Shown here: piece by piece, positions 14,757 through 17,829 of the stretch
How the letters are laid out: each line of letters opens with the position of its first letter
Position numbering within the stretch: position 1 is the first letter of the stretch
NCBI GenBank assembly: GCA_964476125.1
Contig: CAYZAE010000012.1
Coordinates: forward strand, 996 to 64,995
Direction of reading: 5' to 3'
DNA length: 64,000 nucleotides
From: an uncultured Verrucomicrobiota bacterium
GTDB lineage: Bacteria; Verrucomicrobiota; Verrucomicrobiia; Limisphaerales; CAIMTB01
The notes under the pieces: model-generated
Seen by the model: only the letters and a program-made list of their open reading frames with translations
What the model was told of the DNA's origin: nothing
The model's database searches: none
Made by a program: the position numbers and the translations under genes

Positions 14757-14831
14757 GCCTCGGTAGCTCAATGGTAGAGCAGTTGACTCTTAATCAATTG
14801 GTTTCAGGTTCAAGTCCTGACCGGGGCACCA
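14757..14831 (+). tRNA. tRNA-Lys (anticodon CUU), CCA encoded
   Basis: Manual cloverleaf. Acceptor GCCTCGG/CCGGGGC (one G-U); D arm GCTC-AATGGTA-GAGC; anticodon arm GTTGA-CTCTTAA-TCAAT (CTT); variable TGGTT; T arm TCAGG-TTCAAGT-CCTGA; discriminator A plus CCA. Coordinates +/-2. Confidence 0.9.
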
Positions 14832-15178
14832 TTTTCCCGTTCCTCCCTCACGCCTGCCTCCTGCCATAATTCCCTCTTTCGTGCCCTGAAAGTCTGGTTC
14901 ACTCCCGCTGGGGTCGGCCGAGAGAAGCCCTTCTCTGGTACGGGTGGTCGGATCCAACTGAGTCAAAACATCCGCCGTTCAGGGAGACCAGCGCAGGGTG
15001 GGAGTCGTGCTGGCTGGCAAATTTCAACAATCCGGAGGGGATCCGATTCGAACTGCTACTCCGGTTCGATGGGGAAAGCCGCCGAAAAGGTTGCCATCTT
15101 CCTCCTTAGCGACCCTGATTCCGATTTCTCAACGGTGTGGCGAAAAACGGAATCTGCGTCCATAAACAAGGAAATCGC

Positions 15179-16573
15179 ATGATAACGAGCCTGCACCTCA
15201 AGAACTTCAAGGGGTGGAAGGATACCGGCCAGTTGAGTTTGGCACCGATCACTGTTTTCTTCGGTACCAACAGCTCAGGCAAATCGAGCCTTGGCCAGTT
15301 CCTCATGATGTTGAAGCAGACGGCGAATTCGACGGACCGTAATCGGGTGTTGCATCCAGGCGACGATTCCACGGCCGTGGACTTGGGAACCACCGAAGAC
15401 CTGCTCTATCGCCACGACACCACCCAGGAACTGAGCTTCACCTTGACGTGGGCGCAGCAGCCAGCCCTTGAGATCAGGGATGTACTGAGCCAAGAGACAT
15501 TTCGTGGCGAGACGATCAAGTTCGGTGCGACGATCGGATTCGAGACTGGCAAGGGTACGCAAGCGCGCTGCAGGCAGTTCGGCTATTTCTTTGGTGGCGA
15601 CGGAGATCCAGAGTTCGCAGCGGAGCTCCTTCACGATTCTGGCTCGGCTGGAGATTATCGGCTTGAAACGAGGGGTTTTAGGGCGGTCCGAAAGAATATG
15701 AGGGCGTGGCCATTGCCGCATCCGATGTGGTTCTTCGGTTTCCCGGACGAATTGAGCCGCTATTATCAGAACGCGGCGACTCTGAGCGAGCTCACCTTCG
15801 CGCTGCAGACCCTGCTCAAGGGTGTTTCTTATCTTGGGCCGCTCCGTGAAGAGCCCAAACGCCACTATGCCTGGGCCGGCGACACACCCGAGGATGTCGG
15901 GTCGCGGGGGGAGCGGTGGGTGAGCGCGTTCCTGGCCGCCTCAGACAGGAAGATCAGTTTGGGGTACAAGCAACGAGCGAAGTCGTTTGAAGCGTTGATC
16001 GCCGCGGAGCTACAACGTCTTGAGTTGATCCACTCCTTCAGCGTAACGCCTTTGGCAAAAGGGGTCCGGGAGTATCGGGTGCGGGTAAAGGTGGGGGAAG
16101 GGGCTTCCGAGGTCTCGATCCCGGATGTGGGTTTCGGTGTGTCGCAGGTCCTGCCAGTGCTCGTTCAATGCTTCTACGCGCCGCGGGGCAGCACGGTTAT
16201 AGTCGAGCAGCCCGAGCTTCACCTGCATCCGGCGGTGCAGCAGAATCTCGCCGATCTGTTCATTGACGCCTCGAAGTCGTACGAGGGAGGGACCGGCCGT
16301 AAAGTCCAGTTTCTCATCGAGAGCCACTCAGAGCATTTCCTTCGGCGGCTTCAGCGACGAATCGCCGAGCAACAGATCACCCGGGATGAGGTGGCCATCT
16401 ATTTCTGCGGCTCCAATCCCGGCGGTAGCACAATCGAGCCTCTCGAAGTCGACCTTTACGGGAACATCCAGAATTGGCCGCGTAACTTCTTCGGTGACCA
16501 GATTACGGATATGGCAGAGATGCAACGGGCGGGTATCCGCCGGCGACGCGAGGCTCAACCAGCCGGAACTTGA
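15179..16573 (+). CDS. ABC/AAA_21-type ATPase with DUF3696-like C-terminus (OLD/AriA/PtuA-like sensor ATPase class)
   Basis: ATG at 15179 (MITSLHLKNFKGW) inside GTG-started ORF 15137..16573. Walker A FFGTNSSGKSS, Walker B VIVEQPELHLHP, H-loop ESHSEHFLRRLQ, C-terminal NWPRNFFG. First gene of a coupled three-gene unit. Confidence 0.85.
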   Translation: MITSLHLKNFKGWKDTGQLSLAPITVFFGTNSSGKSSLGQFLMMLKQTANSTDRNRVLHPGDDSTAVDLGTTEDLLYRHDTTQELSFTLTWAQQPALEIRDVLSQETFRGETIKFGATIGFETGKGTQARCRQFGYFFGGDGDPEFAAELLHDSGSAGDYRLETRGFRAVRKNMRAWPLPHPMWFFGFPDELSRYYQNAATLSELTFALQTLLKGVSYLGPLREEPKRHYAWAGDTPEDVGSRGERWVSAFLAASDRKISLGYKQRAKSFEALIAAELQRLELIHSFSVTPLAKGVREYRVRVKVGEGASEVSIPDVGFGVSQVLPVLVQCFYAPRGSTVIVEQPELHLHPAVQQNLADLFIDASKSYEGGTGRKVQFLIESHSEHFLRRLQRRIAEQQITRDEVAIYFCGSNPGGSTIEPLEVDLYGNIQNWPRNFFGDQITDMAEMQRAGIRRRREAQPAGT

Positions 16574-16577
16574 GCGG

Positions 16578-17105
16578 ATGAAGCCCTTACCGCGTCGGTG
16601 CCTGGTGGACACGAACGTTGCCATTGTAGCCAACGGCCACAGTGAGCAGGCGAACGACGCCTTGGTGGGGGAGTGCATCGACGCGCTGCTGCAACTGACG
16701 AGGAAGGGTGGTCTGGTGGTCGATGAGCGGGGGGAGATTTTCAACGAGTACCTGCAGAACCTCAGCTTGAAGGGTCAGCCGGGAACAGGGGATTTGTTTA
16801 TGAAGTGGGTTCATGATCACCAGTGGAACCCGGATCTCTGTGAACGTCGGGCCATCACGCCGCGCGAAGACGAGCGGATGTACGAGGAATTTCCAGCGAC
16901 CCCCGACTTGAGGGCTTTCGATCGCGGCGACCGGAAGTTTGTTGCAGTGGCGAATGCGATGGAACCCAAGCCCCCGATTCTTGAGGCCGTAGACTTCAAG
17001 TGGTGGGGATGGAAGAAGGCGCTGGCTGCCGAGGGAATCGAGGTCGTTTTCCTCGATGAGAGAGCGGCCCGAACGGGATACTTCAAGCACATGCGCGATG
17101 TCTGA
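16578..17105 (+). CDS. PIN-like domain protein (putative ribonuclease)
   Basis: Start MKPLPRRCLVDTNVAIVANG lies 4 nt after the ATPase stop. Acidic PIN-like positions: CLVDTNV, VVDERGEIFNEY, FDRGDRKFVAVA. The assignment is from motif resemblance only. Confidence 0.6.
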   Translation: MKPLPRRCLVDTNVAIVANGHSEQANDALVGECIDALLQLTRKGGLVVDERGEIFNEYLQNLSLKGQPGTGDLFMKWVHDHQWNPDLCERRAITPREDERMYEEFPATPDLRAFDRGDRKFVAVANAMEPKPPILEAVDFKWWGWKKALAAEGIEVVFLDERAARTGYFKHMRDV

Positions 17106-17829
17106 GGTATTTCACAAATTCCCATCAACCCCGCACTTGGTCTGGTTGGGGCGAGCCGGACTGCGAGAGGATAAGTTGATGACTGCAGAAGAGGCGGAGG
17201 CGTTCCTCTCGGAACCGGCTGTGCTTGAGGAGAAAGTGGACGGAGCCAATCTCGGGATTTCCTTCGATGCCCAGGGGCGCATGCGATTCCAGAACCGTGG
17301 ACAATGGTTGACCGGAAAACTTTCGGGTCAGTGGGAAACGTTGCGAGTCTGGGCGGCTCAGCACGAGGAGTCCCTGCGAAAGTTCCTGCCGGCAAGACAC
17401 ATTCTGTTTGGTGAGTGGTGTCACGCGTTGCATTCCATCCGTTACGATCAGTTGCCGGACTGGTTTCTTGGCTTCGACGTCTTCGATTGCCGTGCTCGCA
17501 GATTCTGGAGTGTCGCGAGGCGAAACTCACTGCTCGATGCCGTCCATGTTGCAGCGGTTCCGGCAGTGGCGACCGGTCGCTTCCGAATACCCGACATTCT
17601 CAGGCTGCTGGACGGCCTCTCCTCCTTCGCTTCGTCCCCCCGGGAGGGGCTCTATCTTCGGCGGGACAAAGGTGATTGGCTGGAAGGCCGCGCCAAAGTG
17701 GTGTGCGCAGAGTTCACGCAAGCCATTGGTGAGCACTGGTCGAGGAGGCAATTCCTGGCAAACGCAACCGTTGCACAACCGGTTATTTGTGTGGGTGGAC
17801 ACCGCAGCGTCCCGCGGTTGTACCGGTAG
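17098..17829 (+). CDS. ATP-dependent RNA ligase family protein (covalent nucleotidyltransferase superfamily)
   Basis: Start MSEVFHKFPSTPHL overlaps the upstream stop by 8 nt. Motif I EEKVDGANLG (KxDG lysine), motif III LFGEWC, motif IV FLGFDVFD, motif V EGLYLRR...GRAKVV. Confidence 0.8.
   Translation: MSEVFHKFPSTPHLVWLGRAGLREDKLMTAEEAEAFLSEPAVLEEKVDGANLGISFDAQGRMRFQNRGQWLTGKLSGQWETLRVWAAQHEESLRKFLPARHILFGEWCHALHSIRYDQLPDWFLGFDVFDCRARRFWSVARRNSLLDAVHVAAVPAVATGRFRIPDILRLLDGLSSFASSPREGLYLRRDKGDWLEGRAKVVCAEFTQAIGEHWSRRQFLANATVAQPVICVGGHRSVPRLYR

Follow-up and report, generated by a model that had tools for sequence, protein, structure and literature searches.

An RNA ligase gene accompanies an HEC-03-type ATPase and PIN-like gene pair in an uncultured Verrucomicrobiota bacterium

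Why would an immune system carry an RNA-repair enzyme of its own? The question is raised by a compact group of genes in a 64,000-nucleotide stretch of DNA from an uncultured Verrucomicrobiota bacterium (GenBank assembly GCA_964476125.1, contig CAYZAE010000012.1, positions 996 to 64,995; the whole of this stretch is hereafter referred to as the window). Downstream of a tRNA-Lys gene, three genes in a row code for an ABC-type ATPase, a PIN-like protein and an ATP-dependent RNA ligase. A preliminary description had read this trio as a candidate RNA-targeting defence or repair system and did not recognise it as a named one. Here, we find that genes 1 and 2 belong, as judged from their sequence matches, to the same protein families as the two components of HEC-03, an anti-phage system that is both named and experimentally validated, and that the ligase gene is a conserved third member in a large branch of this family. 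The two-gene core is already known, and its association with a ligase had been predicted earlier (see below). The features of the locus are as follows:

14757–14831, forward strand: tRNA-Lys gene, anticodon CTT (CUU), on which ARAGORN and Rfam agree
15179–16573, forward strand: gene 1, ABC-type ATPase with an AAA_15/AAA_21 core and a C-terminal DUF3696 tail (464 amino acids, ATG start)
16578–17105, forward strand: gene 2, PIN-like protein, predicted RNase effector (175 amino acids)
17098–17829, forward strand: gene 3, minimal ATP-dependent RNA ligase with the nucleotidyltransferase domain only (243 amino acids; the conserved part is residues 1–222)
17932–17956, forward strand: terminator-like hairpin followed by a T-run, tentatively a possible operon terminator (consensus scan: CTGCGACATGTCGCAG then CTTTTGTTT)

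HEC-03, for Hma-embedded candidate 3, consists of an ATPase and a PIN protein encoded by two genes; the system tested, from Pseudomonas cichorii, requires both genes, gives Escherichia coli protection from several phages and has a toxic effect on induction (Payne et al., bioRxiv 10.1101/2024.01.29.577857). The source strain is P. cichorii ATCC 10857. In PADLOC-DB v2 the system is represented by the models PDLC04147 (PIN) and PDLC04148 (ATPase) (NB: PADLOC designates the ATPase HEC-03B, whereas the paper designates the same ATPase HEC-03A). Gene 1 matched the PADLOC HEC-03B model with an E-value of 1.1e-130, residues 1–458 of 464 being covered, and gene 2 matched the HEC-03A PIN model with an E-value of 7.8e-29; PADLOC has no model for gene 3. 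Compared with the validated proteins themselves, gene 1 is 43% identical to the P. cichorii ATPase (WP_025259138) and gene 2 is 39% identical to the PIN protein (WP_025259137). The absence of a name, as first described, thus does not hold for the core of the module. From the sequences compared, the family is made up of a two-gene branch, with PIN proteins of 157–165 residues, and a three-gene branch, with PIN proteins of about 175 residues. In one Pseudomonas genome (CP142185.1; L146:370-6146, the loci of relatives being designated by L and a number), the two-gene HEC-03 adjoins Phage_AlpA and DUF927 (primase-like) genes; in some Pseudomonas genomes, therefore, HEC-03 appears to be carried by a small mobile element.

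The trio is passed on, and evolves, as a single operon with translational coupling. When one genome of each species was scanned with an alignment of gene 2, 214 relatives were recovered, and the counts given here rest on the best 80 of these 214 loci, which span Verrucomicrobia, Lentisphaerae, several proteobacterial classes, Nitrospirae, Planctomycetes, Synergistetes, Acidobacteria, Chlorobi, Chloroflexi, Firmicutes, Latescibacteria, Cloacimonadota and others. The ATPase gene lies immediately 5' of the PIN gene in 79 of the 80 loci, and the ligase gene immediately 3' in 71 of the 76 with enough flanking sequence (71 of 80 overall); among the nine loci without a downstream ligase, three are contig ends and five are true absences, with unrelated genes next. 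At both junctions the median is a 4-nucleotide (nt) overlap (66 complete trios). The pairwise distances of the three proteins are correlated (Mantel r 0.83, 0.79 and 0.75, those that involve the ligase being 0.75–0.79), and none of 999 permutations gave a value as high. The view that the trio forms a unit, first taken from the window locus alone, is thereby borne out. Trios are also found on plasmids of Aeromonas, Azotobacter, Tistrella and Rhodococcus, down to 32% identity in the PIN protein, and plasmid ligases that are at least 39% identical always adjoin a PIN gene.

Gene 1 had been described as an ATPase of the AAA_21/DUF3696 type, and the Pfam matches agree (AAA_15, 3.6e-23; AAA_21, 3.1e-18; DUF3696, 9e-10). 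Weaker PADLOC matches were to NsnB of Menshen (1.6e-59) and to PDC-M55A. AriA, GajA and PtuA gave partial matches only, those of AriA and GajA spanning just the ATPase motifs, in residues 300–390. In 67 sequences the Walker A motif (G29-S37), a signature-like D316-V-G-F-G, Q344-P-E-x-H-L-H-P and H383, the H-loop histidine, are invariant.

Gene 2 is less easily placed by its sequence. No Pfam family matched it, and a search of PDB sequences with a gene 2 profile returned chance matches only; among 38 homologues, however, six gave weak matches to Pfam PIN_3. The AlphaFold2 model (predicted local distance difference test score, pLDDT, of 92.8) has strands E8-10, E46-49, E88-91, E134-136 and E156-158 interleaved with helices, the order being the one that a PIN domain should have. 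Four of its five top Foldseek matches in the PDB are PIN domains (3i8o, 1y82, Nob1 and SMG6), though non-significant (E-values of 0.06–0.4; template-modelling, TM, scores of 0.4–0.5). In addition, six acidic residues do not vary among 67 sequences: D11 follows strand S1, D49 and E57 follow S2, D115 and D118 stand at the start of the helix 116–126 and D139 follows S4. Active sites of the PIN domain-like superfamily are recognised by four or more conserved acidic residues, placed behind strands S1, S2 and S4 and where the crossover helix begins (Matelska et al., 2017; PMC5499597), which is the arrangement seen here, and the small protein of HEC-03 was likewise assigned as PIN (Payne et al., bioRxiv 10.1101/2024.01.29.577857). 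The PIN-like nature of gene 2, proposed initially from two acidic motifs, is well supported by the model and the invariant residues, if not proven by fold statistics. In the ligase-bearing branch, the PIN protein of about 175 residues is extended at its N terminus and carries an invariant motif, K-W-W-G-W. The motif occupies residues 141–145 of gene 2 (window 16998-17012), and the two-gene branch has T-D-W-H-E instead; speculatively, it could be where the ligase makes contact.

Gene 3 matched Pfam PF09414 (RNA_ligase, 2.8e-30). Its ligase motifs, noted at the outset as intact, are also invariant in homologues; motifs I, III, IIIa, IV and V correspond to K46-V-D-G (KxDG), F104-G-E-W, F126-D127, E183-G-L-Y-L-R188 and R198-A-K200. 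Searched as a single sequence with phmmer, gene 3 found no match in the PDB, and a profile search reached Rnl3 ligases (3qwu, 8uce and 2vug; about 1e-5) and NgrRnl, the Naegleria Rnl5 (7e-4). Foldseek placed the AlphaFold2 model (pLDDT 91.5) with NgrRnl (2e-7) and Pab1020 (6e-7), then with REL1 and T4 Rnl2, at a probability of 1.0, and by this match gene 3 has the nucleotidyltransferase fold of ligases. The protein is small, with about 225 conserved residues, and the matches span only the nucleotidyltransferase part of targets of 335–390 residues (TM normalised to the target, 0.3–0.45); Rnl3 has an N-terminal and a dimerisation domain in addition, Rnl5 an N-terminal domain and Rnl2 an extra domain, and gene 3 lacks all of them. 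Because these substrate-binding domains are missing, the ligase may work bound to its operon partners. Across the alignments, none of the three proteins shows any variation in its catalytic residues, and the active sites are intact.

The surroundings of related ligases bear on what gene 3 might seal. Large phage genomes encode ligases 38–40% identical to gene 3, without the ATPase or the PIN protein, and these are fused to or paired with end-healing enzymes, namely polynucleotide kinase (AAA_33), DSP phosphatase, 2H phosphoesterase or an HD domain. On three IMG/VR viral contigs the relatives are single polypeptides, all-in-one heal-and-seal enzymes: the ligase is joined to an AAA_33 kinase (L089:4476-5681), to a DSP phosphatase and a kinase (L090:3603-5675), or to a 2H phosphoesterase, a phosphatase and a kinase (L094:3174-5687). 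A P. aeruginosa plasmid carries a relative together with an HD and kinase protein. In the loci examined, the defence-linked ligase never has a kinase, phosphatase, 2H phosphoesterase or HD partner. ATP-dependent ligases need end-healing only after cleavage by metal-independent RNases, which leave 2',3'-cyclic phosphate and 5'-OH ends (PMC7824862), and catalysis by PIN domains is metal-dependent, with the 3'-O as leaving group (PMC5499597). By established chemistry, metal-ion hydrolysis by a PIN nuclease would then yield 3'-OH and 5'-phosphate ends, which are direct substrates of an ATP-dependent ligase; the lack of end-healing enzymes in the module likewise predicts cut ends of this kind. The end chemistry would thus fit a ligase dedicated to PIN-made breaks.

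The operon is recurrently found inside or beside other defence systems. Among the 98 proteins encoded by the two genes on each side of 25 loci, we matched six PglZ members, four PglX/PglXI members, four BrxH-type helicases and four type II methyltransferases, and at least one BrxC was confirmed. In Akkermansia glycaniphila the trio lies within a bacteriophage exclusion (BREX) operon, in the order BrxC-PglXI-[trio]-BrxHI-PglZ, and in L059 the order is PglXI-[trio]-PglZ; in L002 a type IIG enzyme is encoded directly 5' of the trio. On conjugative Aeromonas plasmids (pAsa9-like), the trio stands beside AbiEii, of the AbiE system, and Hok/Gef. The defence association suspected for the trio is therefore found among its relatives. 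In the closest genomic relative (L001; Verrucomicrobia metagenome assembly, VHCO01000057.1), the trio and a Fic-domain gene (PADLOC PDC-S04) lie between two PglX halves, the N-terminal one upstream (positions 10–657 of 1332 in the profile) and the C-terminal one downstream (622–1022; L001:4306-12089); either an insertion disrupted pglX or this PglX is naturally split.

A few loci also carry an HNH gene. It follows the ligase gene as a fourth gene in two loci (L007:9245-10045 and L084:744-1499), and on the Acinetobacter soli plasmid pAS843-2 it replaces the ligase (ATPase-PIN-HNH; L082:6526-7284); helicase-related and N-6 DNA methylase genes lie upstream of these three genes, in a setting that resembles Hma. 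The HNH proteins of L082 and L084 are 46% identical. An HNH gene as a regular fourth member was considered and rejected, as among the fetched loci it stands beside the module only in these three, with a partial upstream match in L049; none was found in the module or its neighbourhood in the window.

Taken as a whole, we favour, with confidence only slightly above even, the explanation that the module represents a branch of the anti-phage system HEC-03 equipped with a ligase; an ATPase would gate a PIN RNase, and the ligase would reseal the cuts. By analogy with NsnB of Menshen, the ABC ATPase would serve as sensor or regulator and hold the PIN protein by its C-terminal DUF3696 tails; a phage cue would release or activate the PIN nuclease, which would cut RNA of the translation apparatus or transcripts. 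The cut would leave 3'-OH and 5'-phosphate ends, and the co-encoded ligase could seal these directly, with no need of a kinase or phosphatase. The ligase probably reseals the PIN cuts; in doing so it would probably buffer leaky self-damage, in the manner of an antitoxin, and/or permit recovery once the threat has gone.

Several observations weigh against this explanation. The two-gene HEC-03 works without a ligase, and five of the 76 loci of the ligase-bearing branch have none downstream, so that the PIN protein can be kept harmless without a ligase, which argues against a strict antitoxin role. The validated branch lacks the ligase, having two genes only, in all four lineages sampled in their native genomes (that with the exact P. 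cichorii PIN protein and three others, from Pseudomonas, Burkholderia and a betaproteobacterial metagenome assembly). A host ligase that resealed PIN cuts during infection would, it seems, undo the defence unless regulated. Moreover, the PIN assignment relies on topology, motifs and fold matches with E-values of at least 0.06, the substrate of the nuclease could be DNA, and the module of the window is not within a defence island, standing alone beside a tRNA gene.

The ligase might also be an integral and regulated arm of the system. We raise this only tentatively: the same complex would cut host or phage RNA on infection and later reseal the host RNA, a self-healing RNA-targeting defence, or, in a rival version, the ligase would circularise fragments and lock in the damage; either way, the minimal ligase would rely on the PIN-ATPase complex for its choice of substrate. 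If the self-healing version were true, what would otherwise be abortive infection becomes reversible dormancy.

The rival version, in which the ligase is part of the attack, is unlikely, yet of the other explanations it survives best. The ligase would circularise or mis-join the PIN fragments, or leave them adenylylated, making the damage irreversible and beyond the reach of phage heal-and-seal enzymes, and the defence would no longer, paradoxically, undo itself. The closest solved relatives by profile include Rnl3 enzymes such as Pab1020, which are RNA-circularising ligases, homologues carry the source annotation 'ATP-dependent RNA circularization protein', and a circularising RNA ligase co-occurs with a PIN-like protein-only RNase P (PMC12153264). 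However, the Rnl3 N-terminal and dimerisation domains are not present in gene 3, the best structural match is of the nick-sealing Rnl5 type, and the published comparative-genomics reading, as summarised by Matelska et al. (2017; PMC5499597), is one of neutralisation.

We consider it a little less probable again that the trio serves chiefly for addiction or stabilisation, as a three-part toxin-antitoxin system with the PIN protein as toxin, the ligase as enzymatic antitoxin and the ATPase as regulator, and keeps plasmids, islands or the surrounding BREX genes in place, any phage defence being secondary. Its presence on conjugative plasmids beside Hok/Gef and AbiEii and inside other defence operons would suit such a role; among the toxins of toxin-antitoxin systems, PIN proteins are typical (PMC5499597), and HEC-03 is toxic when induced (bioRxiv 10.1101/2024.01.29.577857). 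Against this, phage protection has been shown for the two-gene relative, in which neither gene can be spared, the ligase can be missing while the ATPase-PIN pair persists, and neither a VapB-type antitoxin nor a DNA-binding regulator is encoded: the gene upstream of the PIN gene, where a VapB-type antitoxin was looked for, codes for the 464-residue ATPase.

It is improbable that the ligase is an independent passenger of the operon, engaged in general RNA repair against RNases of phages, competitors or resident toxins. The related phage and plasmid ligases do perform general heal-and-seal repair, and the two-gene core can dispense with the ligase; but a passenger would hardly show the tight co-evolution with the PIN protein and the ATPase (Mantel r 0.75–0.79), the 4-nt overlaps and the constant adjacency of plasmid ligases to a PIN gene seen here, and the module has no kinase or phosphatase to deal with the 2',3'-cyclic phosphate and 5'-OH breaks commonly made by foreign toxins.

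Finally, that the genes are adjacent by chance, or that the nearby tRNA-Lys is the specific target of the system, is very improbable and effectively refuted: the tRNA-Lys gene does lie 347 nt upstream, and PrrC and PARIS both target tRNA-Lys, but the gene order is kept in 71 of 76 loci and none of 60 related loci has a tRNA-Lys gene near the trio. The parallel first drawn with cleavage of tRNA-Lys by AriB of PARIS finds no support in this analysis, and we have rejected a functional link to tRNA-Lys; with none in 60 loci, the tRNA-Lys gene is at most an insertion site, as had also been allowed, and not a conserved part of the system. In the same 60 loci a tmRNA gene is found near four and a tRNA-Ala gene near one. 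The tmRNA genes lie 2–5 kilobases 5' of the trio (L008:4160-4507, L034:2979-3331, L050:1603-1955 and L060:1909-2260); tmRNA genes are classic island insertion sites.

At the window locus itself, the compact layout initially reported is accurate: the leader between tRNA-Lys and gene 1 is 347 nt, and the junctions are +4 nt (gene 1/gene 2) and -8 nt (gene 2/gene 3). Public gene calls at the same locus, from several metagenome samples, use later starts that give 166 residues for gene 2 and 216 for gene 3. The shorter gene 2 would lose the strand leading into D11, and the shorter gene 3 would lose K7, P9, T11, H13, R23 and K26, all invariant in homologues; the longer models are preferable because the later starts cost such residues. 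For gene 1, homologues begin at the ATG at 15179 and not at the GTG at 15137. The G+C content of the module, as noted before, is lower than that of its flanks (0.54–0.61 as against 0.62–0.68), and so is that of third codon positions (0.65–0.70 in the module genes, 0.75–0.85 in neighbouring genes), a composition that would fit horizontal acquisition. A boundary of an integrated element at the tRNA gene was sought and rejected: with up to three mismatches allowed, the tRNA 3' end had no second copy at the locus; no direct repeat was convincing, and no integrase is encoded among the genes neighbouring the module in the window, in agreement with the first inspection. Rfam reports no non-coding RNA in the leader or the operon other than the tRNA, and a sigma-70 scan gave no promoter site. 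The terminator-like hairpin lies about 100 nt past the stop codon of the ligase gene; the consensus scan that returned it gave five sites in the region, with 3.6 expected by chance.

The genes around the module have housekeeping or unrelated roles. Upstream in the window are glgC and glmS; downstream are genes for a collagen-repeat protein with Peptidase_S74, a cupin, a DUF4256 protein and a CotH kinase. The first of these downstream genes (18035-19789, forward strand), directly 3' of the module, codes for a protein of 584 amino acids that has collagen triple-helix repeats and ends in a Peptidase_S74 domain. This domain serves endosialidase and tail-fibre proteins as intramolecular chaperone, and its combination with collagen repeats is typical of phage tail fibres; here the protein stands without other phage genes. 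An open reading frame of 926 amino acids at 10310-13090 (forward strand), taken from the program-made list, crosses glgC, which is encoded on the other strand, and reaches into the first part of glmS; it is a shadow frame in G+C-rich DNA and not a gene (third-codon-position G+C of 0.61, as against 0.85 for glmS).

The PADLOC models of HEC-03 describe two genes, and the large branch examined here nearly always adds a co-evolving RNA ligase. The two-gene and three-gene branches thus offer a clean natural comparison for the question posed at the outset. The ligase could protect against leaky self-cleavage, help the cell to recover after infection, or make the damage permanent; its purpose in an immune system is a question of moderate interest that can be tested directly. 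In the literature we found no characterised ATPase-PIN-ligase defence system and no experiments on the ligase-bearing form, and the ligase is not mentioned in the HEC-03 preprint (bioRxiv 10.1101/2024.01.29.577857), the Menshen paper (PMC12065111) or the PADLOC models.

How, then, does the module compare with known systems? PARIS (AriA/AriB), Gabija, Septu and OLD likewise have an ABC ATPase of the AAA_15/AAA_21 type that regulates a nuclease partner; their effectors, however, are Toprim or HNH proteins and not PIN proteins, and they have no ligase. A test for the Toprim partner of PARIS, Gabija and OLD gave no match in the trio. PrrC, set against the Pnk and Rnl1 enzymes of phage T4, also couples an ABC-type ATPase to an RNase whose cut can be reversed by an ATP-dependent RNA ligase, but its nuclease is of the HEPN type and fused to the ATPase, the ligase is a phage counter-defence, and the ends require a kinase-phosphatase; in the window, nuclease and ligase belong to the same party and share an operon, and no healing enzyme is present. 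Menshen (NsnABC) is closer in its ATPase, NsnB being a DUF3696-tailed ABC ATPase that gene 1 matches, and in models of this system the DUF3696 tails of NsnB clamp the PIN-like domain of the effector (PMC12065111). The window locus, however, has only the NsnB-like ATPase, with neither the NsnA (DUF262/ParB) sensor nor the NsnC effector; the PIN-like domains of Menshen are inactive adaptors fused to other nucleases, whereas the PIN protein of the window retains its acidic residues; and Menshen has no ligase.

The combination of parts had already been put forward in 2016. According to the summary in Matelska et al. (2017; PMC5499597), Burroughs and Aravind (Nucleic Acids Research, 2016) proposed a conflict system of a PIN_3-like protein, an ATPase, an HNH protein and an 'ATP-grasp' ligase, the ligase neutralising the nuclease; 'ATP-grasp' is the term used by the Aravind laboratory for Rnl-type ligases (PMC7824862). 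Because of this usage, and of the HNH gene that follows the ligase in L007 and L084, the system of the window is very probably the same, our identification being drawn from a one-sentence summary. As summarised there, it has the same parts (PIN, ATPase and Rnl-type ligase) and the same neutralisation logic; the window module differs in lacking the HNH gene, the four-gene versions being those of L007 and L084, and the prediction, again as summarised, was tied neither to HEC-03 nor to experiment. With HEC-03 itself the window module shares the DUF3696-tailed ABC ATPase and its PIN-like partner, in the same order and in overlapping genes. Its relatives are also embedded in larger defence operons, the pattern that led Payne et al. 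to HEC-03 (bioRxiv 10.1101/2024.01.29.577857). The differences are that HEC-03 was defined and tested as two genes, to which the window branch adds the co-evolving ligase gene in 71 of 76 loci, and that the PIN protein of the tested branch, of 157–165 residues, is shorter than that of about 175 residues with the N-terminal extension and K-W-W-G-W motif. The ligase-bearing branch thus links a comparative-genomics prediction of 2016 to a defence system validated by experiment in 2024.

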